From Burkholderiales bacterium (GTDB taxonomy: Bacteria > Pseudomonadota > Gammaproteobacteria > Burkholderiales > SG8-39): a stretch of 55,436 bases of DNA. The stretch covers positions 1-55,436 of the forward strand of contig DATFEJ010000018.1 in NCBI GenBank assembly GCA_035251235.1. Direction: 5' to 3'. Every line of letters starts with the position of its first letter. Positions within the stretch are counted from its first letter, which is position 1. Both the position numbers and the translations under genes were made by a program. Shown piece by piece: positions 1 to 37,950 of this stretch. The notes under the pieces were generated by a model. It saw only the letters and a program-made list of their open reading frames with translations. It was not told the DNA's origin and ran no database searches.

Positions 1-540
1 GGCCGTGCCAAGCGCGCGCTTGAGCGGCACATTGCAGCGCACCAGGAACGGGATCGAGAGAAAAGCGCCACCGGCCGCAAGCACGCTGGAGATGCCGCCG
101 AACACCGCGCCGGTGGCGAACAGCCCGGCGCGACCGGGCAATTCGCGCTCAGGCTTGGGCGTCGACTCGATGAACATCTGCAGCGAGGCATAGAACATGA
201 ACGCGGTGAACAGGATCGCCAGCGGCCGCGTCGGTATCAGGCCCGCGATCTGCGTGGCGGCAAGCGCGCCTACGACGATGCCGGGCGCCATCGCGCGCGC
301 AACCGGCCAGTCCACCGCACCGTGCTTGTGGTGCGCACGCACGCTGGAGAGCGACGTGAACACGATGGTTGCCATCGCCGTCGCGAGCGCGAGGTGCATC
401 ATGTGCTCGGCCGGAAAGCCCTTCGCCGTGAACACGAACACCAGCATCGGCACCATGATCATGCCGCCGCCGATGCCGAGCAGCCCCGCGAGAAAGCCGA
501 CCACGACCCCGATCGCCAGGTACGCCCACCACCATTCCAC
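1..540 (-). CDS. TauE/SafE (TSUP) family anion-exporter-like permease, 3' end outside window
   Basis: The minus-strand frame runs off the window edge, so it is absent from the ORF track. It reads VEWWWAYLAIGVVVGFLAGLLGIGGGMIMVPMLVFVFTAKGF...ATGAVFGGISSVLAAGGAFLSIPFL. It has several hydrophobic helices and Gly-rich motifs typical of TauE/SafE permeases. The GTG start at 540-538 shares one base with the stop of the upstream HAD gene (TAGTG). Confidence 0.7.
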   Translation of the reverse strand, partial: MEWWWAYLAIGVVVGFLAGLLGIGGGMIMVPMLVFVFTAKGFPAEHMMHLALATAMATIVFTSLSSVRAHHKHGAVDWPVARAMAPGIVVGALAATQIAGLIPTRPLAILFTAFMFYASLQMFIESTPKPERELPGRAGLFATGAVFGGISSVLAAGGAFLSIPFLVRCNVPLKRALGTA

Positions 541-1322
541 TAAGGCTCCCCGAGCAGATGGCCGACCAGCTCGGCAAATCCTGCGCCCGCTTCGTGCGCG
601 GCGACGAACTTCGGCTCGGCGGCAAGGTGGCCGGCGAAGCGGCGAACGTTCGCCATGCCCACCGAGTTGGCGAAGTAGGCGAACATGGGCGCATCGTTGG
701 GCGAGTCGCCGGCGAACGCGTACTCGACGTTCGCGCGGTCCAGGTCCGCGCCAAAGCGCTCGGCGAACAGCGTCTTGGTCATCGCCAGCTTGTCGTAGTC
801 GCCGAACCAGCCGTTCACGTGGATCGAGCTGATCTTCGCGGTGAGCCCCGCCCGGCGCATGAGCGCGGCGATGCGTTCGGCGTCCGCGAGCGGCAGGCGC
901 GGCACGTCCTCGCAGTAGTCGACCGCCAGGTCGGCTTCCCGGTACGGCTGGTCGGAGGCGAGCGCGGTACCCGGGACCTCGGCCAGGATGCGCTCGGCGA
1001 TGGCACCGAGCCGCGCGCGCTTCGCCGCGCGCACGTCGTCGGCATCGTGATAGCGCCGGTGCAGCCTGCCGTTCGCGTAATGGAAATAGAAGGCGCCGTT
1101 CTCCCCGACCACCGCGTCCACCGGCCACATGCGCGCAATGTGATCGCACCAACCGGCCGGCCGGCCGGTCACGGCGACGGACCGGCGTCCCGCGGCGTGC
1201 AGGCGCTCGAGCGCCCCGTAGGCCTCGGCAGTCAGCCGGCCGTCGGTCGTCAGCGTGTCATCGATATCGAACAGGAGCCCGCGCAGCCGGGAAGCGTCGC
1301 GCAGCTCCGACAAGGGCTTCAT
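540..1322 (-). CDS. HAD-superfamily (IIB-like) hydrolase
   Basis: Last 260 aa of track ORF 540..2519(-): MKPLSELRDASRLRGLLFDIDDTLTTDG... with DxDxT motif I, a VTGRP motif and a C-terminal GDSPND motif. ATG at 1322-1320. The upstream part of the track ORF is Arg/Ala-rich off-frame sequence. Confidence 0.8.
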   Translation of the reverse strand: MKPLSELRDASRLRGLLFDIDDTLTTDGRLTAEAYGALERLHAAGRRSVAVTGRPAGWCDHIARMWPVDAVVGENGAFYFHYANGRLHRRYHDADDVRAAKRARLGAIAERILAEVPGTALASDQPYREADLAVDYCEDVPRLPLADAERIAALMRRAGLTAKISSIHVNGWFGDYDKLAMTKTLFAERFGADLDRANVEYAFAGDSPNDAPMFAYFANSVGMANVRRFAGHLAAEPKFVAAHEAGAGFAELVGHLLGEP

Positions 1323-1351
1323 CGGCCGGTGCTCCTGAGGGAGCCGGAATT

Positions 1352-3007
1352 CTAGCGCGCCACCGGCAGGTGCACGCGCACGATGACGCCGTCGCGCGCG
1401 GCCGTATCGGCGGCTTCGATCGCGCCGCCGTGAAACTCGGCGATCAGCCGCGCGACGTACAAGCCGAGTCCCAGGTGCGGCGCGGCACCGGAGGCCGGCT
1501 CGCGCACCGAGACCATAGACTCGAACAGGCGGCCGCGCATCTCGGCGGGCAGCACGGGCCCCTTGTTCTGCACCGAGAGCTGCGCATAGCGCCCCTGGCC
1601 TTCCAGCGCGACGCGCACCGGCGCGCCGGCACTGGAGAAATCGACCGCGTTCTCCACGAGCTTGTCCAGCATCTGCGCAGCGAGGTCCGGGGAGCCGGAG
1701 ACCTCCAGTGGCTCCGATGGTGCTTCGAGCTGGAACGGCGTGGCGGCGTACGCCAGCCGGTAGCCCTCGACGCAACCGCGCACCAGCGCGGCGAGGTCGT
1801 AGCGCTCCCGCTCCGCGGTGCGCAGCGCCTGCTCCAGGCGCGTGGCCTCGCTCATCCTTTGCAGGATGGTATTGAGGCGCGCGAGCCCCTCTTCCGCGCG
1901 CGCCACGTAGGTGCGCAACTCCTCGGGCGTGCTGGCGAGCTTGAGGTTCTCGAGCGAAGAACGCACCACCGCGATGGGCGTGCGCAGCTCGTGCGACAGG
2001 CGGCCCGCCATGCTCTCCAGGTAGGCATGGTGCTGCGCCAGGCGCGCGAGCATGGCCGAGAAGCTGCGCGACAGGTCGCCGATCTCGTCGCCGGCATCCG
2101 AGCCGGCAGAGAGGCGCGCGAGCCGCCCGCGTGCGTCGAATGCGCTTTCCGCCTCGTCGCGCAGGCGGCGGATGCGCGTGGAGATCCGGGTCGCGTAGCC
2201 GATCAGCAGCGCGGCCGTGCCGACGAAGGCGGTCAACGTCAGCAGCAACAGGCGCTCCAGCGCATCGCTGCGCAGGCTGGCGACCGGATTGGTCGATTCC
2301 TCGACGACGACCGCGCCTGCGACCTCGTTGCCGTTCCACACCGGGTGCGCGGCCGACATGACCACGGCGCGGCCGTCCGGCGTCCGGCGCGTGCGCGTGC
2401 CCGGCGTGCCCTGCAGGGCCGCGCTGATGTCGCGCCCCGTGGCGAGCACGTCGTCGGGAACGGCTTCGGCGAAGTCTTCGCTCGGCCGCTCGATCAACCA
2501 GCCGGCGGCGCGGCGCCATGCCGCCTGCAGCCAGGGCTCCTCGGCAGCCTGCACCGGCGCGCGGCGCAGGCTGCCTTCGAGCGCGAGCACCTGGTAGCGC
2601 CGGTTCACCACCCAGAGCCGCGACTCGGTGCGCTGCACGCCCCGCAGGATGGCGGCGAGCTCCTCCTTCGCCTTGCGCGCGGCGAGCTCCGCCTCGCGAC
2701 CCAGGGTGCGCGGCGCGGCCGACTCCTCCGGCGGAGGTCCTTCACCCTGCGCGATGCGCTGCAGCTCGAGCTCGGCTTCGCGCCGCACGGCATCGTCCCG
2801 CTCTGGCACCGCGACCAGCAGCTGCGGACGGTCGTGCAGCGCGGTCGCTACGGCGCGCGCCGTGGCCAGCAGTGCATGCTCCTGCCCGGCGAGCAGCACG
2901 CGCTCGAGCTCGTTCACGTAGCTCAAGCCCGCCCAGGGCAGCCCGAGCAGCACCAGCGCGACCAGCCCCAGCTTGACGCGCAGGCTGAGGGCGAAGCGGC
3001 GCCTCAC
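1352..3007 (-). CDS. Sensor histidine kinase of the proteobacterial dedicated sortase system
   Basis: In frame with track ORF 1352..3700(-). N-terminal TM (LGLVALVLLGLPWAGL), a periplasmic-type region, a second TM (LLLLTLTAFVGTAALLIGY), H-box SHELRTPIAVV, and ATPase N/G boxes (LVENAVDF, GLGLGLYVARLI). The GTG start at 3007-3005 overlaps the regulator stop (GTGA). Confidence 0.8.
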   Translation of the reverse strand: MRRRFALSLRVKLGLVALVLLGLPWAGLSYVNELERVLLAGQEHALLATARAVATALHDRPQLLVAVPERDDAVRREAELELQRIAQGEGPPPEESAAPRTLGREAELAARKAKEELAAILRGVQRTESRLWVVNRRYQVLALEGSLRRAPVQAAEEPWLQAAWRRAAGWLIERPSEDFAEAVPDDVLATGRDISAALQGTPGTRTRRTPDGRAVVMSAAHPVWNGNEVAGAVVVEESTNPVASLRSDALERLLLLTLTAFVGTAALLIGYATRISTRIRRLRDEAESAFDARGRLARLSAGSDAGDEIGDLSRSFSAMLARLAQHHAYLESMAGRLSHELRTPIAVVRSSLENLKLASTPEELRTYVARAEEGLARLNTILQRMSEATRLEQALRTAERERYDLAALVRGCVEGYRLAYAATPFQLEAPSEPLEVSGSPDLAAQMLDKLVENAVDFSSAGAPVRVALEGQGRYAQLSVQNKGPVLPAEMRGRLFESMVSVREPASGAAPHLGLGLYVARLIAEFHGGAIEAADTAARDGVIVRVHLPVAR

Positions 3008-3693
3008 TCCTGCCAACGGTAGCCCATGCCGTAGGCGGTCTCGATGTGCTCGAAGGCGGGGTCGATGGCCTGGAACTTGCGGCGGATGCGCTTCACGTGC
3101 GAGGTGATCGTGCCATCGTCGACCACGAGGTTCGCCTCGCGCATCAGCTGCTCGCGGCTCTTCACGTGGCCCGGATGGCGCGCGAGCGCGTACACCATCC
3201 AGAACTCGGTCAGCGTGAGCGGCACGGGCTGGCCGCGCCAGGCGACGCTGAAGCGCTTCAGGTCGAGCGTCAGCTCGCCGCGCGCCAGCGTCTCTTCCTG
3301 CGCATCGGGCTCGCGCGACAGATCGGCGCGCCGGAAGAGCGCCGCGATGCGCGCCAAGAGGTGCGGCAGGCTCACGTCCTTGGTGAGATAGTCGTCGGCC
3401 CCCAGGCGCAGGCCCGACACGACGTCGAAGTCGCTGTCGCGCGCCGTGAGGAAGATGATCGGCAGCGAGGAGGAGAGGCCGCGCAGCTCGCGGCACAGGA
3501 CGAACCCCGCGTCCGCGTCCCCCGCCAGGCCGATGTCGATCACCGCCAGGTCGGGCAGGCGGGCGCGCATCGCCGCCAGCGCTTCGGCGCGCGCGCCGTA
3601 GGCGCTGACCTCGAAGCCATGCTTGCGCAGCGCGTCGGCGTAATTGGCGCGGATGGCCGGATCGTCTTCGACGATGGCGATGCGGCGGGGCAT
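3004..3693 (-). CDS. OmpR-family response regulator (receiver + winged-helix), sortase-system associated
   Basis: C-terminal 229 aa of track ORF 3004..5847(-): MPRRIAIVEDDPAIRANYADAL...LAVIDIGL (receiver Asp)...LTLTEFWMVYALARHPGHVKSREQLM...YGMGYRWQE (Trans_reg_C). ATG at 3693-3691. An alternative ATG lies at 3714. Confidence 0.85.
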   Translation of the reverse strand: MPRRIAIVEDDPAIRANYADALRKHGFEVSAYGARAEALAAMRARLPDLAVIDIGLAGDADAGFVLCRELRGLSSSLPIIFLTARDSDFDVVSGLRLGADDYLTKDVSLPHLLARIAALFRRADLSREPDAQEETLARGELTLDLKRFSVAWRGQPVPLTLTEFWMVYALARHPGHVKSREQLMREANLVVDDGTITSHVKRIRRKFQAIDPAFEHIETAYGMGYRWQE

Positions 3694-3849
3694 GGCGCAA
3701 CGACTATAGCCCATCGCCGCGGTGTCCTCGGCGCCTGCCCGCGGTTTGCCAGAATTCTTCCGCGGCCTGCCCGCTTTCGCGCCGCGCGCCGCCCCGCGGG
3801 AAGCATGCAATGCACCCTCAGCCAACGACACGCCGAGGAAGACGCCGCC

Positions 3850-5934
3850 ATGCAGCCCGATTCCCCCGTCCGCCACAGCCGCGTCGTCGCCCTGGACATG
3901 CTGGCCTTCGTCGGGCTCGCCGCCGCGGTGGCGCTCGCGGCGGCGCTGGTGCTCGTCGCCGCGGTCCTGCTGCTCGCCGGCCGCGCCGAGGCTGCCCAGT
4001 CGGAGCCGGGGGCGCTGCTTCTGCGCACGGTGGACGGGCGGGAGCTGCCCAAGGCGCCTTTGCTCTCGACCGACGTGTCGTTCCGCGTTTCGGGCATGGT
4101 GGCCCGCGCCCGCGTCGTCCAGGTCTTTCAGAACGCCTCCGCGGACTGGGTGGAGGGGGTGTATGTCTTCCCGCTGCCGGAGAGCGCGGCGGTCGACCGC
4201 CTGCGCATGCAGGTCGGCGAGCGCGAGATCGAGGGCGAGATGCACGAGCGCGAGGCCGCGCGGCGCACCTATCAGGCGGCACGCGACGGCGGCCGGCGGG
4301 CGGCGCTCATGGACCAGGAGCGGCCCAATATCTTCACCACGCGCGTCGCCAATATCGGACCGCAGGAAAGCATCGCGGTCGAGCTCGAGTACCAGCAGAC
4401 CTTGCGCTACGACGGCGGGCGCTACTCCCTGCGCTTTCCGATGGTGGTCGGTCCGCGATACATCCCGGGCTTCGTGCGCACTTCCACGCCGGAGCCGCTC
4501 GGCTGGAGCCCGAACACCGACCAGGTGCCGGATGCCGCGCGCATCACGCCGCCCGTGCTGCGCCCGGAGGCGGGCCCCGTCAATCCGGTCAGCATTCGCG
4601 TGGCGCTCGATGCCGGCGTGCAGATCGAAGAGGTATCGAGCACCTACCACCCGGTGACGGTCGCTGCGCCGTCGGCGAACCGCCGCGAGATCGCGCTGGC
4701 CGCCGGATCCACGCCAGCCAATCGCGATTTCGAGCTCGCCTGGACGCTGCAGCGCGCGCAAGCCCCGCAACTCGCGTGGTTCACCGAGGAGAAAGCGGGC
4801 CGCCACTACGGGGTGCTCATGCTCCTGCCGCCCGCACCCGCGCCCGGCGTCCGCCTGGCGCGCGAAGTGGTGTTCGTCCTCGACACTTCGGGCTCGATGG
4901 CCGGCGCCTCGATCCGGCAGGCGAAGGATGCATTGCAGCTGGCGCTGGCGCGCCTCGCGCCGGGCGATGCGTTCAACGTCATCGAGTTCAACTCGGCGGC
5001 GCAGGCCCTGCACCCACGCGCCGTGCCCGTCAATCCCGGCAACGTCCGCCGCGCAATCGATTGGGTGCAAGCGCTGCAGGCGCGCGGCGGCACCGAGATG
5101 GCCTCCGCTCTGGCGCTCGCGCTGGACGGGTCGGACGAGGCCGGCCGCGTGCGCCAGGTGGTCTTCCTCACCGACGGCGCGGTCGGCAACGAGGATGCGC
5201 TGTTCCGGCTCGTGCGCGCGCGGCTCGGCGGCACGCGGCTGTTCACGATCGGCATCGGCTCCGCGCCGAACAGCCACTTCATGACGAAAGCGGCGGAACT
5301 CGGGCGCGGCACGTTCACGTACATCGGCCGGATCGACGAAGTGCAGGAGAAGATGGCGGCGCTGTTCGCCAAGCTCGAATCGCCCGTCCTCAAGGGTCTG
5401 GAAGTGCTCTGGCCCGAGGGCGTGCACGCGGAGTCCTGGCCGGCACGCCTGCCGGACCTGTACGCCGGGGAGCCCGTGGTGGTCGCGGCGGCGCTGCAGC
5501 GGCTCGAGGGCTCGGTGCGCGTGCGCGGCACGCGCGAAGGCCGCCTCTGGGAAGCGCAGGTGCCGCTCGCGCATAGCGTCGGCAATGCCGGCATGGGGTC
5601 GCTCTGGGCGCGCGGCAAGGTCGAAGGGCTCATGGACTCGATCCGCGAGGGCGCTGCCGAGGACAAGGTGCGCGCCGAGGTGATCGATCTCGCACTGGCG
5701 CACCGCTTGGTCACCAAGTACACGAGCTTCGTCGCCGTGGACAAGACGCCGGCGCGCGTGAGCGATGCGCAGCTCAAGCTCGCCGCGGTGCCGACCAACC
5801 TGCCCGAGGGCTGGGAATACGACAAGGTGTTCGGCGAGTTGCCGCAAGGTGCGACCGACAGCCGCTTTGCCATGCTGAGCGGTGCGCTCCTCCTGCTGCT
5901 CGCGCTGGCGATGCTGCGCTGGAGGACGGCGTGA
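3850..5934 (+). CDS. VIT + von Willebrand factor A domain protein with C-terminal sortase sorting signal (sortase target)
   Basis: In frame with track ORF 3046..5934(+). N-terminal signal/anchor (LAFVGLAAAVALAAALVLVAAVLLLAGRAEA). VIT-like region (VSFRVSGMVARARVVQVFQN...VYVFPLPE). vWA MIDAS motif VFVLDTSGSM. C-terminus LPQGATDSRF + hydrophobic helix + RWRTA. The ATG at 3850 is preceded by GAGGAAG. An alternative ATG at 3805 lacks an SD. Confidence 0.85.
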   Translation: MQPDSPVRHSRVVALDMLAFVGLAAAVALAAALVLVAAVLLLAGRAEAAQSEPGALLLRTVDGRELPKAPLLSTDVSFRVSGMVARARVVQVFQNASADWVEGVYVFPLPESAAVDRLRMQVGEREIEGEMHEREAARRTYQAARDGGRRAALMDQERPNIFTTRVANIGPQESIAVELEYQQTLRYDGGRYSLRFPMVVGPRYIPGFVRTSTPEPLGWSPNTDQVPDAARITPPVLRPEAGPVNPVSIRVALDAGVQIEEVSSTYHPVTVAAPSANRREIALAAGSTPANRDFELAWTLQRAQAPQLAWFTEEKAGRHYGVLMLLPPAPAPGVRLAREVVFVLDTSGSMAGASIRQAKDALQLALARLAPGDAFNVIEFNSAAQALHPRAVPVNPGNVRRAIDWVQALQARGGTEMASALALALDGSDEAGRVRQVVFLTDGAVGNEDALFRLVRARLGGTRLFTIGIGSAPNSHFMTKAAELGRGTFTYIGRIDEVQEKMAALFAKLESPVLKGLEVLWPEGVHAESWPARLPDLYAGEPVVVAAALQRLEGSVRVRGTREGRLWEAQVPLAHSVGNAGMGSLWARGKVEGLMDSIREGAAEDKVRAEVIDLALAHRLVTKYTSFVAVDKTPARVSDAQLKLAAVPTNLPEGWEYDKVFGELPQGATDSRFAMLSGALLLLLALAMLRWRTA

Positions 5935-6587
5935 AGCCCGAGCTTGCCTGGGGTGCGGAGTGCGCCTGGCCGGTGACCCGGCGAGCCCGGTGTCTGCCCT
6001 GGCGTTCGCTCGCGCTCGCCCTGGCGCTCATCGGCGCCCTGCAATTCGGACACGGTGCATGGATCCAGGCGAAGGCCTGGCTCGCGCAGGCGCTGATCGC
6101 GCGCGCTTGGGATCGTACGTTGCAGGGCGAGCGTCAGGTACGGCCCTGGCCGTGGGCGGATACCTGGCCGGTCGCGCGCCTGACGTTGCCGGCGATGGGA
6201 GTCGAGCGCTATGTGCTCGCCGGGGCGGACGGCAGTGCGCTCGCTTTCGGCCCCGGCCACCTTCATGGCACGCCCACCCCGGGCAACGCCGGCAACAGCG
6301 TCGTCGGCGGGCACCGGGATACCCATCTCGCATTCCTGCGCGACGTGCGGCCCGGCCAGCGCATCGAAATTGAGCGCGCGGACGGCCAGCGCGTCGTCTA
6401 CCGGGTGATCGAGGCCGCCGTGCTGGACAAGCGCGATGTGTGGGTGGCGAAGCAGGAGGGCCCCACGCGACTCACGCTGGTGACCTGCTTTCCATTCGAC
6501 GCCCTGCGCGCCGGGGGGCCGCAGCGCTACGTAGTCTTTGCCTTCGAACTCGAGAACCGCGGCGGCGAGCGCGGGATGCGGGGCTAG
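5931..6587 (+). CDS. Sortase, Gram-negative (class GN / marine proteobacterial) type
   Basis: Track ORF 5931..6587(+). TM anchor LALALALIGALQF, catalytic-type motifs VVGGHRDTHLAF (His), LTLVTCFPFD (TLxTC Cys) and RYVVFA (Arg). The GTG start overlaps the target gene stop (GTGA). Confidence 0.85.
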   Translation: MKPELAWGAECAWPVTRRARCLPWRSLALALALIGALQFGHGAWIQAKAWLAQALIARAWDRTLQGERQVRPWPWADTWPVARLTLPAMGVERYVLAGADGSALAFGPGHLHGTPTPGNAGNSVVGGHRDTHLAFLRDVRPGQRIEIERADGQRVVYRVIEAAVLDKRDVWVAKQEGPTRLTLVTCFPFDALRAGGPQRYVVFAFELENRGGERGMRG

Positions 6588-6612
6588 CTTCCTCCCCTGG
6601 CTGCCCTTCCCC

Positions 6613-6632
6613 GCTCGCCTGCTTCGGCGAGC
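6613..6632 (+). terminator. Hairpin downstream of sortase gene (GCTCGCC-tgcttc-GGCGAGC), no U-tract
   Basis: Perfect 7-bp inverted repeat with a 6-nt loop, 26 nt after the sortase stop. It lacks a T-run, so intrinsic-terminator function is uncertain. Confidence 0.3.
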
Positions 6633-6724
6633 ATCTGCACCGCCCGCACGGCGTGATGAAATTGACGGCAGGACGCCGCCCGGACGCCTATAGTGGCCGG
6701 ACCGATCCGGATCGAGGGATGCCG

Positions 6725-6928
6725 ATGAAGCGACTTCTCGCTTTGACCACCGTCGCGGTGCTCGCCGGCTGCGGCGTGGAAACCGCCAGCACCGCCGCGA
6801 CCGCCGCCGCGCTGAAGAAACAGGAAGTGGAACAGGGCCAGAAGACCACGCAGCGCGCGCAGCAGAAGATCGACAGCGCGCTGCAGCAGTCGCAGCAGCG
6901 CGCCGACAGCGCCGCCGACGAGCACTAA
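6725..6928 (+). CDS. Small Gln/Ala-rich lipoprotein (hypothetical)
   Basis: MKRLLALTTVAVLAGCGVETAS... with lipobox LAGC. Third codon positions are G/C-rich. GAGGG lies 6 nt upstream of the ATG at 6725 (an in-frame ATG at 6719 has no spacing for an SD). This is the 3' part of track ORF 6440..6928. Confidence 0.6.
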   Translation: MKRLLALTTVAVLAGCGVETASTAATAAALKKQEVEQGQKTTQRAQQKIDSALQQSQQRADSAADEH

Positions 6929-6947
6929 GGCCGGTCCGCCCGGCTCG

Positions 6948-7370
6948 CTACTTCTTGCGCAGCTTGCGGATGGCCGCGAGCTGCGCCGCCAGCGACGCCA
7001 CTTCGCTTTCCACCGCCGCGATCTCCTGCTTGTCGCGCGCCTTGGCGCGTGCCTCTTCGGCTTTCTTCAGCGCCTCTTCCGCCTTCGCGGCATCGAGGTC
7101 GGCGCCGCGAATCGCGGTGTCGGCGAGCACCGTGATCAGCTTGGGCTGGACTTCGAGTATGCCGCCGGCGACGAAGATCAGCTCCTCCGCGCCGCCGCCC
7201 GCGGGCATGATGCGCACGGCGCCCGGCTTGATGCGCGTGATGAGCGGGGTGTGGCGCGGATAGATGCCGAGCTCGCCCGCCTCGCCGGGCAGCACGACGA
7301 ACTCGGCCTCGCCCGAGTAGATCGAGGCCTCGTTGCTGACGACGTCGACGTGGATGGTGGCGGCGGCCAT
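6948..7370 (-). CDS. atpC: F0F1 ATP synthase subunit epsilon
   Basis: Track ORF 6948..7370(-): [45 protein letters not shown]... Last gene of the atp operon. Confidence 0.95.
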
Positions 7371-9688
<2,318 letters not shown>

Positions 9689-9697
9689 GGCGCTCGC

Positions 9698-11245
<1,548 letters not shown>

Positions 11246-11269
11246 GCCAGCTCCTTAAGCGTGCTGCTT

Positions 11270-11806
11270 CTATGCCTTGAGTGCGTTCTCGAGCGCGCCC
11301 AGCTGGGCGCGCGCGGAACCGTCGATGACCTTGTCGCCGATCACCACCTTGACGCCGCCGATGAGGGCCTTGTCCACGCTGACGCGGGCCTTCACCTTGC
11401 GGCCGGAGCTCTTCTCCAGCCGCGCGACCAGGTCGGCAACCTGGGCCTGGTCCATCTCGAACGCCGAATAGATCTCCGCCTCCAGCGTGCCTTCGCGCTC
11501 GTTCTTCAGCGCCTCGAAATGCGCGCGGATCTCCGACACCACGTCCAGGCGCCCGTTGTCCGCGAGCACGCGCACGAAGTTCTCCGCATCGCCGGACAGC
11601 TTGCCGGCGAGGATCGAGAGGATCAGTCCGGCGGCCTTTGCTGCAGGCAGGTTCGGATCGGCGACCGCCATGCGTACCCGCTCGTCCGCCGCCACCGCGG
11701 CGAGGTTGGCGAGCGCGGCCGACCATTCGGCGAGCTTGCCCTGCGCGTCGGCCAGCTTGAAGGCGGCGTCGGCGTAAGGGCGCGCGATGGTGGTGGGTTC
11801 GGCCAT
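11270..11806 (-). CDS. atpH: F0F1 ATP synthase subunit delta
   Basis: Track ORF 11270..11806(-), 178 aa. The position between atpF and atpA and the OSCP-like sequence support the call. Confidence 0.93.
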   Translation of the reverse strand: MAEPTTIARPYADAAFKLADAQGKLAEWSAALANLAAVAADERVRMAVADPNLPAAKAAGLILSILAGKLSGDAENFVRVLADNGRLDVVSEIRAHFEALKNEREGTLEAEIYSAFEMDQAQVADLVARLEKSSGRKVKARVSVDKALIGGVKVVIGDKVIDGSARAQLGALENALKA

Positions 11807-11814
11807 CTCTGGTT

Positions 11815-12285
11815 CTAAAGCTGCTTCTTGATGCCGTCGAGCAGGTCGGAGTGCGCCTTGGCGTCGACCTCGCGTCGCAGGATCTTCTCAGCACCGGCCA
11901 CCGCCAGCGCGGCGACGTCGTCACGCAGCTTTTCGCGCGCGCGCGAGACCTCCTGCTGGATCTCGGCCTTGGCCGCGGCCTTCTCCCGCTCGCCTTCCGC
12001 GCGCGCCGCCTGCTTGGCCTCGTCGAGCATCTGCAGCGCGCGCTTTTCCGCCTGCGCCAGGATCTCGCTCGCCCGCCCGCGCGCCTGCTCGATCGCATCG
12101 CTCGCCTGCCGCTTGGAGCTCTCGAGCGACTTGTGGCCCTGCTCTGCCGCCGCGAGGCCGTCGGCGATGGTCTTCTGGCGCGCCTCGATGGCGCGCAGCA
12201 TGAATGGCCAGACCACCTTCGCCGTGAACCAGATGAACAGCGCGAAGGTCAGCGCTTGGGCGATCAGCGTCAGATTGAAGCTCAT
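11815..12285 (-). CDS. atpF: F0F1 ATP synthase subunit b
   Basis: Track ORF 11815..12285(-). One N-terminal TM ([22 protein letters not shown]) followed by a long charged helix. Confidence 0.93.
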
Positions 12286-12310
12286 GGCGACTCCCTGCGC
12301 GTCGGTGCGC

Positions 12311-12625
<315 letters not shown>

Positions 12626-13435
12626 CTAGTGATGCTCGTGCGCCATGGCGATGTACACCACGGTGAGCATCATGAAAATGTAGGCCTGCAGCGCGACGAT
12701 CAGGATATGGAAGATCGCCCAGCCCAGCCCGAGCAGCGTCGCGACGATGGTGCCGAACAGGCCCGTGGCGGCGAGCAGCCACAGCAGCAGGAAGATGATT
12801 TCGCCGGCGTACATGTTGCCGAACAGCCGCAGCGCGTGGGACAGGGGCTTGGACACGTACTCGATGAAGTTGAACAGCAAGTTGGCGGGCCAGAGCAGCG
12901 GGTTGCTGCCGAAAGGCGCGCAGAACAGCTCGTGGATCCAGCCCCACAGCCCCTTGGCGGCGATCGAGAACCAGATCATCAGCAGCCAGACCGAGAGCGC
13001 GAGCGCGAAGGTCGTATTGACGTCCGCAGTGGGCACGGGACGCCAGGCGTGCAGGCCCATCCACTCCAGCGGCGTGACGACGATGTCGATGGGCAGGAAG
13101 TCCATCGCGTTCATCACCAGCACCCAGACGAACACGGTAAGCGCGACAGGCGCGACGAAGCGGTTGCGATCGCCGTGGTGGAAGATGCCCTTGACCTGCT
13201 CGTCGATGAATTCGATGAGCAGCTCGACCAGTGCCTGTCGCCGGTTCGGCACGCCGGCGGTCGCGCCGCGCACCACCCACCAGATGGCACCCATCGCCAG
13301 GATACCGACCAGCGCGGCGGTGATCACCGAATCGACGTTCAGCGACCAGAACCCGCCGTCTCCCACGGGCTTCGTGAGAAAGGTCAGGTGGTGCTGGATG
13401 TAGTCCGTGGCGTTGAAGTCTTTGCCGGCAGCCAT
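12626..13435 (-). CDS. atpB: F0F1 ATP synthase subunit a
   Basis: Track ORF 12626..13459(-) begins at a TTG. The first ATG (13435-13433, [17 protein letters not shown]...) lies 4 nt after the atpI stop. Conserved [15 protein letters not shown] motif. Confidence 0.92.
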
Positions 13436-13439
13436 TGGT

Positions 13440-13820
13440 TCAGTCGTATTCGCGTACAAAGAACGCCATGCCGAAGATCAGGACCGTCGCGATGAACGAT
13501 CCGAAAAACGCGGGCGCGACGACGCTCTTGTACGTCGCCAGCACCAGCCACAGCAGGAGCACGATGAGGCCGATCTTCACGCCTTCGGCCGCCAACGCGC
13601 TGATCAGGACGTCTCCTGCGGTCCGCGCCTTGCCCTTCGATGCCACCACCGCGGATACCCAGCCGGCGCAGACGCTGATCGCCCCACCCAGGGCGGCGGA
13701 CAGCGCGCCGTCGACTCCGGCCAGAATCCCCCCGGCGAGCGTCAAGGCAGCGGTGGCGATCAGTTGCCACCGCAGAACGGTGCGGATCGGCTTGCGCAGG
13801 GCGCCCAGACTGGCGTTCAT
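13440..13820 (-). CDS. atpI: ATP synthase protein I
   Basis: Track ORF 13440..13838(-) begins at a TTG. The first ATG (13820-13818) gives [28 protein letters not shown]... A small polytopic membrane protein at the head of the atp operon. Confidence 0.75.
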
Positions 13821-13847
13821 GCTCTTGGCGGCCTGCAAAGCCGCGCG

Positions 13848-13876
13848 ATTTTACGGGTTGCCCCAACAACGGTCAA
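13848..13876 (-). promoter_or_regulatory. Sigma-70-type promoter of the atp operon (TTGACC-17 nt-TAAAAT)
   Basis: The minus strand reads TTGACC (13876-13871), a 17-nt spacer, then TAAAAT (13853-13848). This is about 28 nt upstream of the atpI ATG, in the parB-atpI spacer. Confidence 0.6.
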
Positions 13877-18240: not shown

Positions 18241-19422
18241 GTGATCTCACTTACCCGTTACGCCACGCTGCTCGAGCGTCCCGAGCTTCGCCGAACGATC
18301 GTGGCATCGGTCATCGGCCGGCTGCCGATCGGCATCCTCGGACTTGCGATCCTGCTCGCCTCGCAAGCATCGAGCGGCTCCTTTGGCGTGGCGGGCGCCG
18401 TCGCGGCGAGCTACCTGGCCGGCCTCGCGGCGATGGCGCCCGTGCTTGGCCGCCTGATCGACCGCGCGGGCCCGCGCAGGGTGCTGACCGTATGCGCCGG
18501 CGCCTTTCCAGCCACCTTGATCACGCTTGTCGCGGCTTTGCGGCTGGACGCGCCCCAGTGGACGGCTTTCGTGCTGGCGGCGGCCGCGGGCGCGACCTTT
18601 CCGCCGATCACCGTCAGCTTGCGCACGTTCCTGCGACAACGCCTGGCGGACGAAGCGCAGCTTTCCACGGCCTATTCGCTCGAGTCGGTGCTCATCGAAA
18701 CGATCTTCATCATCGGTCCGATGCTCGTCGCGCTCTTCGTCGCCTACTTGTCGGCCGCGGCGGCCGTGATCTTCGCTGCCGGCTGCGGCCTCATCGGTAC
18801 CCTGCTGTTCCTTCGCTCACCCGTGCTCGCGCACTGGCGCATCGAGAAGCGCACTGGTTCCAGCATGCTCGGGCCGCTATCGGTGCCCGGTTTTGTGCCG
18901 CTCCTCGCCGTCATCCTCGCCTATTCCGGCGCGTTCGGACTGCTCGAAATCGGTGTCACCGCCTTCGCGACCGAATCCGGCAAGCCGGCGCTCGCGGGAA
19001 TCATCCTCGGCTTGATGAGCGTTGGCAGCGCAGCGGGCGGACTCGCCTATGGCAGCCGCAGCTGGCGGCCGCCACTGACGCACCAGTTCGCCCTGATGCT
19101 TTTCCTGATGGGCGCAGGGCTCGCTGCACTGGCCTATGTGGCGAACGCTGCCGCATTCACGATCCTCGGCATTCTCGCGGGGATCGTGATGGCGCCCGCG
19201 CTCATCATCCAGTCCATGCTGGTCGCGAAGACGGCGCCGGCGCAGTACGCGACCGAGGCGTTTACCTGGTCGACGTCCTGCCTCCTGACCGGCGTCGGCC
19301 TCGGCCTCGCCCTGGGCGGGCTGATCCTCGAGCGCGCAACCTCGAGCGCAGTATTCGCCACCGCCGGCCTGGTCTCCGTCGGCGCCGCCGTACTGGCCGG
19401 CGTTTCCCTGCGCACGCGCTAG
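18241..19422 (+). CDS. MFS transporter
   Basis: In frame with track ORF 18100..19422(+). Roughly 12 hydrophobic segments (e.g. [52 protein letters not shown]). The start is set at GTG 18241 ([18 protein letters not shown]); the upstream part of the ORF covers the parS region, so the start is uncertain. Confidence 0.75.
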
Positions 19423-21998
19423 CCGCGCCGTCGCCGCCGGCCCCTGCTCCGCTGCAGAAAGTAGACGAAAGCGAGCAGTGCGAGCGCGGGAAGGTAGACC
19501 CAATGCTCCGAAGGCCGATCGGTCGGCACCTTGACCGCCGCAACCTCGAATCCCTGCTCGAACCCCGATTTCTTCGCGCGGCTGCCGAATCGCACCGCCG
19601 CGACGCGCACGTTCTCCCCGAGCGCCGTGATCGTCAGGCCCGAGGCAGCGAGCCTCTTGCGCCCCTCTCCGGGTTCCACGAGCTGCACGGCCACCGTCTT
19701 GCGTACGTCCTCGCCCTCGATGTTGGTGCCCTTGATGACGAGCACCAGCCGTTCCTTCTCGCCCAGCTCACCAGCGACGCGGAAGACCTCTTTTGCCGGC
19801 ACTTCCGTGTAGGGGGGATAGAGCTTGTCCATGAAGAAGTCCGGGCGGAACAGCGCGAACGTGCCGGCCAGCAGCAGCGCGATCTCCCACCAGCGGCAGC
19901 GCGAGTGAAACCAGCCAAGGGTGGCCGCCGAGAACGCGAGAGATGCCACCGTCGCCGCGAACGCCACTAGCAGCACTTCCCACCAGCTGCGCACGTCGAT
20001 CAACAGCAGCATGGGGTTGAAAACGAAGACGAAGGGCAGCACCACCGTGCGCAGGGCGTAGACCGACCCCTGGATGCCGGTCTTGATCGCGTCTTCTCCC
20101 GAGATCGCCGCCGCGGCGAACGTTGCCAGACCGACCGGAGGCGTGATGTCGCCCATGATGCCGTAGTAGAAAACGAACAGGTGCACGGCGATGAGTGGAA
20201 TCACCAGCCCCGATTGCGCGCCCAGCTCGACGATCACCGGCGCCATGAGGGTCGCCACGAGGATGTAATTGGCGGTCGTCGGCACGCCGAGCCCGAGCAC
20301 CAGGCAGACGAATGCCGTGAATAACAGCATCAAGACCACGTTGCCCTGGGAGACGACCTCGACGAAATCGGTCATGCGGAATCCGAGCCCGGTCAGCGTG
20401 ATGCCGCCGACGATGATCCCCGCGGTGGCGGTGGCGATGGCGATGGAAATCATGTTGCGGGCGCCGTCGTTCAGGCCATCCACAACTTCCTTCAAGCCGC
20501 GCTTGACCATCCCCGCCATCCTGCGGCGACCGCGGAAGTATGCGGTCAACGGATGCTGCGTCGCCATCAGCGCGATGAGCGTCGCTGTGGCCCAGAACGC
20601 CGACAGCGCCGGCGAAAGTTCCTCGATCATCAGGCACCAGATGAGCACGCCGATCGGGATCAGAAAGTGCACGCCCGCCTTTACCGTCGGCCAGGTGTCG
20701 GGCAGCACTGGATTGTCGACGTCGATGTCCTGCGGCAGGTCCGGACAGCGCGCGGCCACCCTGACCGTGAAGACGTAGAGCGCCGCCAGCAGTGCGCCAA
20801 GCACCCATGGCGCCACGGCCGGGCCCAGCGCATTTTTCGCGCCTTCCGCGGCCCAGTAGATGACGCTGCACACGACGATCGATCCCGAGACGCCCAGGCC
20901 CCAGCCCGTCAGCTTTTGCTGGAACGGGCGCGCGCGAGCGCGCGCCGTCGGCTCGAGGCCGAGCTTCAGTGCTTCCAGATGGACGATATAGAAAAGCGCA
21001 ATGTAGGAGATGAGCGCGGGCAGGAAGGCATGCTTGATGACGTCGGTATAGGGAATGCCCACGTACTCCACCATCAGGAATGCCGCCGCTCCCATGACCG
21101 GCGGCATGATCTGCCCGTTCACCGAAGATGCAGTCTCGATCGCCCCCGCCTTCACGCCGCCGTAGCCCGCCTTGGTCATCAGCGGAATGGTGAAGATGCC
21201 GCCGGATACGACGTTCGACACCGAAGAACCCGAGATCAAGCCGTTCAGGCCGGAGGAGACGACCGCGACCTTGGCCGGCCCGCCACGCAAGTGCCCGAGC
21301 ATGGCGAACGACACCTGCATCATGTAGTTGCCGGCGCCAGCCTTGTCGAGCAGCGAACCGAACAACACGAAAATGAAGATGTAGCCCACCGACACGCCGA
21401 GCGCCACGCCGAACACGCCTTCGGTGGTCAGCCACTGATGCACCAGCATGCGTTCCCACGACGCGCCCTTGTGCGCGATGACCTCGGGCAGGAACTTGCC
21501 GAGCATGATGTAGGCGAGGAAGACCAGCGCAAGGATCGTCATCGGCATGCCCACTGCCCGGCGCGTGGCTTCCAGCAGGAGCACGATGCCGACCGAAGCG
21601 ACGATGATGTCCTGGAGATTCGGCTGGCCGGGGCGATTTGCCAGCTGCGCGTAGAAGAACAGGAAGTACGCGCCCGCGGCCCCCGCAGCGAGACCGAGGA
21701 TCCAGTCGAACCACGGGATGCGATGGCGCTGCGACGCCGTGCGCATGGCCGGATAGCAGAGGAAGGCGAGCAACAGCCCGACTCCCAGGTGCAAAGAGCG
21801 CGCTTCGGTGTCGTTGAGGATGGCCCAGCCGAACGTAAAGGGCAAAGGCGAGGCGTACCAGAGCTGGAACAGCGACCAGCCGATCGCCAGCACGAAGATC
21901 AGCTTGCCGAGGATGCCCTTCGCGGCGCGTCCGCCCGTGTCCGCGTCGGCGACGAACTGCTGAAGATCGGGACTCGGTCCGTGGCCCTTCTTGGACAT
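19419..21998 (-). CDS. TRAP transporter fused permease (TAXI-type, DctQM-like) with C-terminal extra domain
   Basis: Track ORF 19419..21998(-), 859 aa. Highly hydrophobic polytopic protein (MSKKGHGPSPDLQQFVADADTGGRAAKGILGKLIFVLAIGWSLFQLWYASPLPF...) downstream of a TAXI binding-protein gene. The last ~139 aa form a soluble segment plus one terminal TM. Confidence 0.9.
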   Translation of the reverse strand: MSKKGHGPSPDLQQFVADADTGGRAAKGILGKLIFVLAIGWSLFQLWYASPLPFTFGWAILNDTEARSLHLGVGLLLAFLCYPAMRTASQRHRIPWFDWILGLAAGAAGAYFLFFYAQLANRPGQPNLQDIIVASVGIVLLLEATRRAVGMPMTILALVFLAYIMLGKFLPEVIAHKGASWERMLVHQWLTTEGVFGVALGVSVGYIFIFVLFGSLLDKAGAGNYMMQVSFAMLGHLRGGPAKVAVVSSGLNGLISGSSVSNVVSGGIFTIPLMTKAGYGGVKAGAIETASSVNGQIMPPVMGAAAFLMVEYVGIPYTDVIKHAFLPALISYIALFYIVHLEALKLGLEPTARARARPFQQKLTGWGLGVSGSIVVCSVIYWAAEGAKNALGPAVAPWVLGALLAALYVFTVRVAARCPDLPQDIDVDNPVLPDTWPTVKAGVHFLIPIGVLIWCLMIEELSPALSAFWATATLIALMATQHPLTAYFRGRRRMAGMVKRGLKEVVDGLNDGARNMISIAIATATAGIIVGGITLTGLGFRMTDFVEVVSQGNVVLMLLFTAFVCLVLGLGVPTTANYILVATLMAPVIVELGAQSGLVIPLIAVHLFVFYYGIMGDITPPVGLATFAAAAISGEDAIKTGIQGSVYALRTVVLPFVFVFNPMLLLIDVRSWWEVLLVAFAATVASLAFSAATLGWFHSRCRWWEIALLLAGTFALFRPDFFMDKLYPPYTEVPAKEVFRVAGELGEKERLVLVIKGTNIEGEDVRKTVAVQLVEPGEGRKRLAASGLTITALGENVRVAAVRFGSRAKKSGFEQGFEVAAVKVPTDRPSEHWVYLPALALLAFVYFLQRSRGRRRRRG

Positions 21999-22013
21999 GG
22001 CCTTGCCTCCCCA

Positions 22014-22051
22014 GGAAACAAAAAGGGGCGAAACTCGCGTCCCGCCCCTTT
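22014..22051 (-). terminator. Intercistronic intrinsic-terminator-like hairpin between the TAXI binding-protein and permease genes
   Basis: Minus strand: AAAGGGGCG-12 nt loop-CGCCCCTTT followed by TTGTTTCC. A 9-bp stem plus a T-run, 25 nt after the binding-protein stop. The permease has its own GGGGAGG SD. Confidence 0.55.
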
Positions 22052-22075
22052 CTTGCGCTTACCCGGCCGGCTGGC

Positions 22076-26434: not shown

Positions 26435-27766
26435 CTACTTGCCGATGCAAAAGCGGCCGAAGATCTCCCCCAGCAGGTCATCCGCCGTGAACTCGCCCGT
26501 GATGCGGGACAGGGCTTCCTGCGCGAGTCTGAGTTCCTCCGCAAAAATCTCCCAGCGGCGGCCTTCGTCCGCCGCTGCGGCGAGGTGCGAGGCCGCTTGC
26601 TGCAGCGCATGCAGGTGCCTTTCGCGCGCGATGAACACCGATTCCCCTGCAGCGCGCCAGCCCGCCGCCGCGAGCAGGGCCGCGCGCAGCGCGTCCAGGC
26701 CTGCGCCGGTCTTGGCGGACACCGCGACGGCGCCGTGCGGAGCGACAAAGCCCGGGGCCAGATCCACCTTGTTGTAGACCTCGAGCCGCGCCACGCCTGC
26801 GGGCAGGTCTTCCAGCGGCGCGTGCGCCGTGCCGGCCTCGAACACCAGCATGACGAGGTCAGCCTCCTGCAGCTCGCGCTGCGTGCGCTCGATGCCAAGG
26901 CGCTCGAGCGGGTCGGCCGAAGGCCGCAGTCCCGCGGTGTCGATGACCACGAGCGGCACGCCGTCGATCAGGATCGACTCGCGCAGCGCATCGCGCGTCG
27001 TGCCGGCGATCGGCGTCACGATGGCGCGTTCCTCGCCGGCCAGCCGGTTGAGTAGGCTCGACTTGCCGACGTTCGGCCGGCCCGCGATCACCACGCGGAT
27101 GCCCGAGCGCAGCAGGCTGCCCTGGCGGCTCTTGCGCAGCACATCCTCCAGTGCCGCGCGCACGCCCGCCAGCCGCTTGGCCGCGTCCGCACGATGCAGG
27201 ACGTCCACGTCCTCCTCCGGAAAATCGAGCATCGCTTCGGTCAGGGCGCGCAATTCGACCAGTTGCGCCACCAACGCGTGGATGGCGGACGAAAACTCGC
27301 CACGCAGCGAGCGCAGCGCCGATGTGGCGGCTTCGCGGCTCGCGGCCTCGATCAGGTCGGCGACCGCCTCGGCCTGCGCGAGGTCCATGCGCCCGTTGAG
27401 GAAGGCGCGGCGCGTGAATTCCCCGGGCTGTGCGAGCCGCGCGCCCGCCGCCACGCAAGCGCTCAGCAGGGATTGCATGACCACCGGTCCGCCATGGCCC
27501 TGGAACTCGAAGACGGGCTCTCCCGTGTACGAGTGCGGCGCGGCAAAGAAGAGCGCAATGCCCTGGTCGATCAGCGCGCCGCGTGCGTCGCGCGCGGTCG
27601 CCAGGGTCGCCTGGCGCGCCGGCGGCACACGCCCCAGCAGGCGCTCGGCGATGCGCGACGCCTGCGCGCCGGAGACGCGCACCACGCCGATGCCCCCGAT
27701 TCCCGGGGGCGTCGCTACCGCGGCGATCGTATCCGGGAGGGGGTCTGCAGGCTTAGTGCTTCCCAC
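26435..27766 (-). CDS. mnmE: tRNA modification GTPase MnmE (TrmE)
   Basis: Track ORF 26435..27766(-). Reads DTIAAVATPPGIGGIGVVRVSG, G1 motif GRPNVGKSSLLN, and the C-terminal CIGK motif. The GTG start overlaps the yidC 3' end by 14 nt. Confidence 0.93.
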   Translation of the reverse strand: MGSTKPADPLPDTIAAVATPPGIGGIGVVRVSGAQASRIAERLLGRVPPARQATLATARDARGALIDQGIALFFAAPHSYTGEPVFEFQGHGGPVVMQSLLSACVAAGARLAQPGEFTRRAFLNGRMDLAQAEAVADLIEAASREAATSALRSLRGEFSSAIHALVAQLVELRALTEAMLDFPEEDVDVLHRADAAKRLAGVRAALEDVLRKSRQGSLLRSGIRVVIAGRPNVGKSSLLNRLAGEERAIVTPIAGTTRDALRESILIDGVPLVVIDTAGLRPSADPLERLGIERTQRELQEADLVMLVFEAGTAHAPLEDLPAGVARLEVYNKVDLAPGFVAPHGAVAVSAKTGAGLDALRAALLAAAGWRAAGESVFIARERHLHALQQAASHLAAAADEGRRWEIFAEELRLAQEALSRITGEFTADDLLGEIFGRFCIGK

Positions 27767-29408: not shown

Positions 29409-29426
29409 GTCGCTTCGCCTCTCGCC

Positions 29427-30275: not shown

Positions 30276-30352
30276 TTTATTCTCGCCGGCGCATCGAGCG
30301 CGGCCCTGGCGGGATCCCTCTGAGAAACGCTACGCGAGACTGCTGAGAGCAC

Positions 30353-31681: not shown

Positions 31682-31687
31682 ATTGCC

Positions 31688-31696
31688 TGTGGATAT
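31688..31696. promoter_or_regulatory. DnaA-box-like 9-mer (TGTGGATAT, 8/9)
   Basis: One mismatch to TGTGGATAA. It lies 7 nt after the dnaA stop, in the dnaA-dnaN spacer. Confidence 0.4.
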
Positions 31697-31745
31697 CCGA
31701 TGTACGGAATGTGCGCATCTCGCCCTGGCGAGGAACGATGGAAAA

Positions 31746-31754
31746 CGATCCACA
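31746..31754. promoter_or_regulatory. DnaA-box-like 9-mer (CGATCCACA, 7/9)
   Basis: Two mismatches to TTATCCACA, in the opposite orientation to the box at 31688. Lies in the dnaA-dnaN spacer. Confidence 0.3.
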
Positions 31755-31879
31755 GCCATGCACATTCGATGCACAGCTTTTGCGCGTCCGCGCGCGGCGC
31801 CAAGCCATTGTTCGGCCTGCAGGAATCGCTTTCCCTGAACAATGCCACCTCCCCTATTAACGATTATTAGGAATAAATA

Positions 31880-37950
<6,071 letters not shown>

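Follow-up and report, generated by a model that had tools for sequence, protein, structure and literature searches.

Sortases are textbook Gram-positive enzymes. For the widespread class GN sortases of diderm bacteria, it has not been established where the single VIT/vWA substrate is attached or why the system is induced by wall damage. What, then, does such a sortase do in a Gram-negative cell, and what switches it on? These questions arise for a four-gene locus on a 55-kb contig of a public Burkholderiales metagenome-assembled genome (MAG). The whole contig was analyzed and is referred to here as the window. We are practically certain that the locus encodes, on the chromosome, the proteobacterial dedicated sortase (Pds) system; it has the four-gene form, and its kinase is of the short-sensor type. 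The system is already curated and its genes are already annotated in GenBank; the locus is not new. The contributions of the present analysis are a tandem 11-bp box in the control region, a predicted WalK-like PDC fold for the remaining sensor domain, and a sorting-signal core, P-x-(T/G)-A-T.

Four genes of a dedicated sortase system

Families were called with the curated cut-offs of NCBIfam, and domains were called with Pfam. The initial annotation had assigned all four proteins to the TIGRFAMs dedicated-sortase families, and three of these assignments stood. The sortase scored 220.1 bits against TIGR03784 ("class GN sortase"; cut-off, 158.25), with profile positions 2 to 174 of 174 matched; the target scored 772 bits against TIGR03788 (cut-off, 551.65); and the regulator scored 373.7 bits against TIGR03787 (cut-off, 335.7). 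The fourth did not stand at the family cut-off, as described for the kinase below. Pfam domains were found in every protein: Sortase in the sortase, VIT (residues 72 to 181) and vWA (VWA_3; residues 339 to 489) in the target, Response_reg and Trans_reg_C in the regulator, and HisKA and HATPase_c in the kinase.

The genes form two operons that diverge from a shared control region (Table 1). Reading of the junctions bore out the translational coupling claimed earlier for the target-sortase pair, as the GTG start of the sortase overlaps the TGA stop of the target as GTGA (positions 5931 to 5934). The kinase start overlaps the regulator stop in the same way (GTG on TGA, as GTGA), in agreement with the description of a divergent, coupled pair of an OmpR-type regulator and a sensor kinase. 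All four gene calls are those of GenBank on the same contig (HJS36631.1, HJS36632.1, and HJS36634.1), and they also match an independent ENA assembly. For the regulator, GenBank entry HJS36632.1 ("proteobacterial dedicated sortase system response regulator") uses the same start. A longer regulator (236 aa from an upstream start; an ENA call) was rejected because a 2-nucleotide (nt) indel between the window and a related Burkholderiales locus (L064) marks the additional stretch as noncoding; the GenBank start gives the shorter protein.

Table 1. Positions of the module's genes and of the sequence elements discussed in the text (AF2, AlphaFold2)
Feature	Positions	Strand	Basis and remarks
Sensor histidine kinase, short-sensor PdsS/PghK type	1352-3007	-	551 aa; GenBank name "ATP-binding protein"
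Insertion of ~45 residues in the kinase (residues ~74-118), predicted helical hairpin, Glu/Ala/Arg-rich	2654-2788	-	87-homologue consensus, MAFFT, AF2
OmpR-family response regulator, PdsR/PghR type	3004-3693	-	229 aa; GenBank HJS36632.1
Divergent control region, regulator to target	3694-3849	.	156 bp; sequence read, aligned with four related loci
-10-like hexamer TATAGT, regulator-kinase operon	3705-3710	-	~11 nt upstream of the regulator ATG; conservation only
Candidate regulator-binding box, tandem, ~11-bp period	3743-3778	+	GGTTTGCCAGAATT / CTTCCGCGGCC / TGCCCGCTTTC; repeat and conservation
VIT/vWA sortase target	3850-5934	+	694 aa; GenBank name "marine proteobacterial sortase target protein"
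Tripartite sorting signal	5839-5931	+	LPQGAT, nt 5839-5856 (residues 664-669); helix AMLSGALLLLLALAML, nt 5869-5916 (residues 674-689); RWRTA, nt 5917-5931
Class GN sortase	5931-6587	+	218 aa; GenBank name "class GN sortase"

The sortase carries an N-terminal transmembrane (TM) anchor at approximately residues 27 to 45. The His, Cys, and Arg motifs noticed earlier (HRDTH and TLVTC for the first two) were confirmed as His128 (in GHRDTH; nt 6312 to 6314), Cys186 (in TLVTC; nt 6486 to 6488), and Arg199 (nt 6525 to 6527). These residues align with those of the class D structure 2LN7 and are invariant in all 72 complete sortase homologues obtained from 80 genomes. The next-best NCBIfam models for the sortase are those of class D (NF058671, 75 bits; NF033746, 74 bits), with cut-offs (140 to 165 bits) well above these scores, and the resemblance to class C is weak (8T28, E = 9e-9; class C score, 38 bits). 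This sortase was called dedicated and strictly Gram negative by Haft and co-workers (PMC3237569).

The target begins with a hydrophobic export signal (residues ~10 to 50). It had been described as a protein of approximately 695 aa with a VIT domain and a vWA domain bearing a DTSGSM metal ion-dependent adhesion site (MIDAS), and this description holds for the 694-aa product. The MIDAS residues (D345-T-S347-G-S349, T415, and D442) are invariant across 18 aligned target homologues. The LPXTG-like signal, hydrophobic helix, and basic tail reported at its C terminus were likewise found, with a helix of 16 residues between LPQGAT and RWRTA. A search of all six reading frames detected exactly one such tripartite tail in the window. 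An 879-aa open reading frame (ORF) at 19419 to 22058 on the reverse strand, which ends in a C-terminal helix and an RRRRRG tail, was considered as a second sortase substrate and rejected: it encodes a TRAP transporter fused permease (TIGR02123, 740 bits) whose C-terminal domain is DUF3394.

We scanned one genome per species with the target alignment and kept the best 80 loci, which come from many phyla. Among the 120 closest targets, most signals read FGELP[QR]G[AS]T[DG]SR, and a minority contain LPQTGT, LPQTAT, or LPQSAT. In this clade, Gly is therefore normal where the canonical motif has Thr. In the 80 species-level loci, the conserved core reads P-x-(T/G)-A-T; the Leu ahead of it gives way to Tyr, Trp, Phe, Ile, or Met in some loci. 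Signals such as YPRGAT, YPQGAT, YPNTAT, and WPQTAT, in which Leu is replaced, were seen in 11 loci (L012, L021, L022, L026, L029, L037, L048, L050, L052, L072, and L079). The class GN core is thus not LPXTG but P-x-(T/G)-A-T, and class GN signals that lack the Leu could escape generic LPXTG detectors. Matches in a plasmid collection placed homologues named "marine proteobacterial sortase target protein" on large plasmids or chromids of Rhizobium, Phyllobacterium, and Brucella anthropi, which means that the module is confined neither to chromosomes nor to marine bacteria.

The gene set varies around a fixed pair. Target and sortase are adjacent in essentially every one of the 80 loci where the contig allows the comparison. 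A divergent two-component system stands beside the pair in about 25 of the 80, with a short kinase (520 to 600 aa) in 7 and a long kinase (670 to 740 aa) in 17. The arrangement of the window (i.e., a TIGR03785-type kinase, a TIGR03787 regulator, and the sortase pair) recurs in L064, L004, L005, L007, and others. An OmpA-like gene lies next to the target-sortase pair in approximately 12 of the 80 loci. The two candidates scored against TIGR03789 (PdsO) that passed are those of L075 (270 bits) and L009 (200 bits), the only loci in which true PdsO genes were found. The one Nitrospira OmpA-like gene tested (L038) is Pal-like and, with 56 bits, fell short of the TIGR03789 cut-off. In the window, a tblastn search with Shewanella PdsO gave no match at E <= 1e-3, and a hidden Markov model (HMM) of seven PdsO-like proteins detected no six-frame ORF at E <= 10. 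We conclude that pdsO is optional, that target and sortase form the core, and that the window contains this core plus a two-component system without PdsO. The module had been called complete, which is correct relative to the commonest regulated form and incorrect relative to the five-gene Shewanella prototype, since pdsO is not in the window.

Two further arrangements were noted. In seven Nitrospirota loci (L012, L014, L022, L028, L029, L034, and L038), the pair has no adjacent two-component system and an OmpA-like gene lies immediately upstream, which suggests a separately recruited wall-binding partner. In a Zoogloeaceae MAG (L004), a small cytochrome c-like gene (CKACH; 115 aa; positions 9400 to 9747 of L004, forward strand) lies between regulator and target, at the position of pdsO in Shewanella fodinae.

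Control region and surroundings of the module

Alignment of the control region with the four related loci revealed two conserved blocks, namely, the hexamer TATAGT and a TTGCCACAATT-type box followed by weaker copies with a period of approximately 11 bp. The family consensus of this box is TTGCCACAATT-CATCATAATTG; the control region of the window holds the GCCAGAATT repeat, and a direct repeat with 21-nt spacing was found there. By eye, the box was recognized in 22 of the 26 control regions that were read. A relaxed pattern, applied on the strand of the target, located a box of the type GCCACAATT in 21 of the 26 control regions next to two-component systems. The density was 4.1 boxes per kb inside control regions versus 0.17 per kb elsewhere in the same loci (i.e., an approximately 25-fold enrichment). 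The loci that bear the box come from beta-, gamma-, and deltaproteobacterial and Acidobacteriota genomes. When a position weight matrix (PWM) was built without the window, its best site in the window fell at the box, in the orthologous place, with a score of 14.0 bits, which was also attained in 7 of 20 shuffled windows and is not significant alone. The same PWM detected no second box site above the shuffle background elsewhere in the 55-kb window.

OmpR/PhoB-family regulators usually bind tandem direct repeats of 11 bp, and the regulator of the window, whose phospho-acceptor is Asp53 (the counterpart of PghR D52), belongs to this family. From the repeats and their conservation, we infer that the box is a candidate PdsR/PghR operator serving both divergent promoters. 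In Shewanella algae, Huang and Liu reported that the substitution G547W in pdsS raised sortase, target, and pdsO transcripts 126- to 799-fold (PMC11580497), and an operator for both promoters would fit the upregulation of pdsS and pdsR in that mutant. The Shewanella preprint on the orthologous PghKR system defines no operator (10.1101/2023.05.05.539549). The conserved box offers a concrete candidate that could be used for mapping PdsR/PghR regulons; those of Shewanella contain genes for beta-lactamase and the stringent response.

The other block probably belongs to the promoter of the regulator-kinase operon. A GAnTATA block is invariant in five betaproteobacterial loci, and a 2-nt indel adjacent to it marks a noncoding stretch. 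The complementary ACTATA is present in Shewanella and Thiotrichales loci, at approximately 40 nt upstream of the regulator in Shewanella. On this conservation, TATAGT is likely a -10 element that gives a very short leader, which suggests that the regulator-kinase transcript is nearly leaderless in the betaproteobacterial clade.

Several neighbors were considered as additional parts of the module and rejected. Between the sortase and atpC, there is a predicted lipoprotein of 67 aa (MKRLLALTTVAVLAGC...; 6725 to 6928, forward strand) without a Pfam match or a homologue in the 80 related loci; it stands alone in its 90% identity cluster and is a "hypothetical protein" in GenBank. A HAD-type hydrolase gene (540 to 1322) beside the kinase occurs in one related locus only (L064), where it is not adjacent. 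An anti-phage defense role found no support in PADLOC, which gave no match for six proteins. A mobile origin was dismissed, as the GC content is even across the region and the plasmid collection yielded weak matches only (large rhizobial replicons) and no close relative. The module adjoins the ATP synthase operon (6948 to 13850, reverse strand). Apparent mnmE, yidC, dnaA, dnaN, and gyrB genes, named from ORF translations alone, lie approximately 25 kb away (~26435 to 29426, reverse strand; 30347 to 35420, forward strand). If these names are right, the module would be near the chromosomal replication origin, in housekeeping surroundings.

The short-sensor kinase

The nature of the signal, the sortase acceptor, and the vWA ligand had all been listed as open questions. 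The first has been partly answered for the long form of the kinase. Yin et al. reported that PghKR of Shewanella oneidensis (SO2192/3) is activated by wall-targeting antibiotics and by the loss of PBP1a, that it is required for the induction of blaA and relV, and that all three genes of the pdsO-target-sortase operon are upregulated >17-fold under PghKR-activating conditions (10.1101/2023.05.05.539549). PghK signaling depends on R177 and Y178, in its CBM9 region, and on I289, and the absence of CBM9 from most betaproteobacterial PghK homologues was already noted in the same study (10.1101/2023.05.05.539549).

The kinase of the window consists of TM1 (residues ~10 to 28), a periplasmic domain (29 to 252), TM2 (253 to 273, from hydropathy), the phospho-acceptor His339, and the HATPase_c domain (440 to 550). 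TIGR03785 is by far its best model (520 bits versus 166 for the next). At 520.4 bits, it falls below the cut-off of 612.2, with its main match limited to profile positions 259 to 703, because positions ~70 to 258, a CBM9-like sensor subdomain of approximately 200 residues, are missing. In keeping with the low score, the GenBank name is only "ATP-binding protein." All short-form kinases tested (three relatives) likewise fail the model (469 to 524 bits). By comparison, the 719-aa Shewanella kinase of L069 scores 1135.6 bits, and its R177, Y178, and H508 occupy the same positions as those reported in PghK. In a MAFFT alignment, the kinase of the window lacks the entire CBM9-like subdomain II (PghK ~70 to 270), including R177 and Y178; the position of PghK I289 is occupied by Leu131, a conservative change. 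By these sequence comparisons, the kinase is a short-sensor form and not a decayed gene.

Exactly at the site of the CBM9-like subdomain of long-form kinases, the kinase of the window carries the insertion listed in Table 1. Among 87 short-form homologues, the consensus runs on without a break at this point ("...RDDEV-AILLGVQR"). The closest relatives of the kinase share the insertion; most short forms are ~500 to 524 aa long and have directly joined flanks. The CBM9 site appears especially prone to insertions and deletions.

We modeled what remains of the sensor. The AF2 model of the full kinase had a predicted local distance difference test score (pLDDT) of 82.9, with the insertion forming helices of lower pLDDT. 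Modeled alone, the periplasmic domain (pLDDT, 82; predicted TM-score [pTM], 0.75) combines a five-stranded sheet with a long helix at the N terminus. The best Foldseek matches to this model were WalK extracellular domains (9A5D, 7DUD, and 4YWZ; E = 8e-6 to 1.5e-4; target-length TM-score, <=0.68), followed by CqsR, DctB, DcuS, and CitA, which scored almost as well. The model thus places the remaining sensor domain in the PDC/sCache fold. In long kinases, CBM9 would then interrupt a PDC sensor between its N-terminal helices and its first strand, and the branch represented by the window would have the PDC sensor only.

A proposed mechanism, its rivals, and known relatives

For the complete chain from envelope cue to wall-linked target, we propose the following, with a probability of approximately 0.55. 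With its one periplasmic domain, which is PDC/sCache-like, the kinase would sense an envelope cue. Orthology with Shewanella PghK/PdsS probably ties this cue to peptidoglycan damage, and the conserved box supports a sortase operon induced by wall-targeting antibiotics only indirectly. Phosphate would pass from His339 to Asp53 of the regulator, which would then bind the tandem 11-bp box at 3743 to 3778 and activate the target-sortase operon, and probably its own operon too. The C-terminal helix and basic tail would keep the exported target in the inner membrane, where the membrane-anchored sortase would cut LPQG|AT, with Cys186 forming the thioacyl intermediate. The target would be passed to an amine acceptor, most likely meso-diaminopimelate of peptidoglycan or lipid II, by analogy with class D/E sortases. 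The expected product is a wall-linked periplasmic protein with a metal-dependent (MIDAS) binding site. We favor a peptidoglycan or lipid II acceptor because the nearest characterized enzymes belong to class D and because the Shewanella operon responds to wall damage.

Several observations weigh against this chain. At its first step, the kinase falls below the TIGR03785 cut-off and lacks the subdomain with R177 and Y178 that PghK needs for signaling, so that the cue may differ in the short-sensor branch. At the operator, only the first repeat of the box in the window fits the consensus well, and the PWM score is matched by shuffled sequence at the rate given above. A consensus scan across positions 400 to 7400 detected no consensus sigma-70 promoter or intrinsic terminator. 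At the last step, the literature found on class GN sortases (the Shewanella papers, a TIGRFAMs-era comparative study, and a paper on a classifier) identifies no acceptor for the target. In Shewanella, deletion of the sortase operon left ampicillin resistance unchanged, and the Shewanella preprint calls the role of Gram-negative sortases unknown (10.1101/2023.05.05.539549).

The alternative that survives best concerns regulation, and we give it even odds. It holds that the two-component system is a general regulator of envelope or peptidoglycan stress with a wider regulon, in which the sortase operon is merely a neighboring member. The PghKR pair of S. oneidensis has blaA and relV under its control as well and acts in beta-lactam resistance independently of the sortase genes (10.1101/2023.05.05.539549); moreover, the target-sortase pair has no adjacent two-component system in approximately two-thirds of the 80 loci. 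Set against this is the window itself, in whose 55 kb, the part of the genome covered, no comparable second box was found outside the shared promoter region. This alternative is compatible with the proposed chain and does not exclude it. A more far-reaching proposal is that the short-sensor branch lost the peptidoglycan-damage module of Shewanella and reads another envelope cue through the WalK-like PDC domain, while the sortase links the VIT/vWA protein covalently to a component of the diderm envelope (peptidoglycan or a lipid amine). We hold this version to be doubtful; if true, it would describe a not yet described stress-induced covalent envelope protein of Gram-negative bacteria.

The remaining alternatives concern the fate of the target. 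A transfer to a nonpeptidoglycan acceptor (e.g., the amine of phosphatidylethanolamine or another envelope molecule) would give the target a lipid anchor, and the product could be moved on to the outer membrane or surface. The same VIT/vWA cargo family ends elsewhere in GlyGly-CTERM (rhombosortase) or PEP-CTERM (exosortase) signals and is therefore suited to nonwall routes (PMC3237569), and the present computations point to no particular acceptor. Nevertheless, the closest characterized sortases are those of class D (75 and 74 bits; 2LN7), which use wall acceptors, and the Shewanella operon is induced by wall damage; we consider this transfer unlikely. Less probable still is a sortase that acts only as a processing protease and hydrolytically frees the target from its membrane anchor, so that it would be soluble in the periplasm or secreted. 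Sortases are known to catalyze hydrolysis as a side reaction, and no acceptor gene is kept beside the pair (the OmpA-like/pdsO neighbor being present in only ~12 of the 80 loci), but the full transpeptidase triad, including Arg199, is strictly conserved and the tripartite retention signal is conserved across phyla. Head-to-tail polymerization of the target into a pilus-like fiber, suggested by the weak class C similarity (8T28) and by the vWA domains of Gram-positive pilus tip adhesins, is highly improbable given a class C score (38 bits) far under the class GN and class D scores, a single substrate gene, no pilin-type domains found by Pfam, and a periplasmic location that offers no obvious route for a fiber.

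The nearest sequence relatives of the target in the PDB are the eukaryotic VIT-vWA proteins PARP4 and ITIH4/ITIH1, and the shared VIT-vWA-C-terminal architecture aligns over target residues 69 to 634 (PARP4, E = 8.5e-33; ITIH4, E = 5.5e-26). Heavy chains of the inter-alpha-trypsin inhibitor (ITI) family are cleaved near the C terminus and moved covalently onto a glycan polymer. The eukaryotic proteins have no sortase signal and use other chemistry and other enzymes, which makes the parallel an analogy only.

For the sortase, the best relatives of solved structure are the class D enzymes (Bacillus anthracis SrtC, 2LN7; NF058671, "LPxTATN-specific"), with His, Cys, and Arg in register. Class D sortases use diaminopimelate-type wall acceptors. 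Their signal, LPxTA(T), is similar to the class GN core, and the likeness to "LPxTATN" parallels the sequence similarity of the enzymes. With ~75 bits versus a cut-off of 140 to 165, the sortase of the window is not a member of class D, and unlike the class D enzymes of Bacillus and Clostridium, it resides in a diderm host with one adjacent substrate. For the kinase, the counterpart is WalK (YycG) of Firmicutes, whose fold is similar to that of the modeled sensor. The match is suggestive, as both kinases stand in wall-homeostasis circuits; the likeness is at the fold level only (10 to 14% identity) and does not speak for a common ligand.

The Shewanella Pds/PghKR systems (S. oneidensis SO2192-SO2196; S. 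algae pdsS-pdsR-pdsO-target-sortase) have the same divergent layout, with orthologous target, sortase, and regulator. The regulator of the window is 62 to 64% identical to the Shewanella regulators, its Asp53 and the kinase His339 correspond to PghR D52 and PghK H508, and the control regions of the Shewanella loci L069 and L075 contain a box of the same type. In contrast to Shewanella, the window has a kinase of 551 aa rather than 719 aa without the CBM9-like subdomain II, has no pdsO, has the signal LPQGAT instead of LPQTAT or MPQTAT, and shows no blaA or relV with a box in its 55 kb. Another close match is the short-sensor betaproteobacterial form (e.g., the Burkholderiales MAG of L064 and GenBank MDH4093718/721), which has the same four genes, a kinase of 551 to 552 aa, LPQGAT, and the box GGATTGCCACAATTGCC at the same distance from the regulator start (53 to 55 nt). 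Within the short forms, the kinase of the window and its nearest relatives have the ~45-residue helical hairpin, and most others are without it. This betaproteobacterial form combines a minimal sensor, lacking CBM9, with the absence of PdsO, and thereby narrows the essentials of the system to four parts: target, sortase, regulator, and a kinase of the PDC type.

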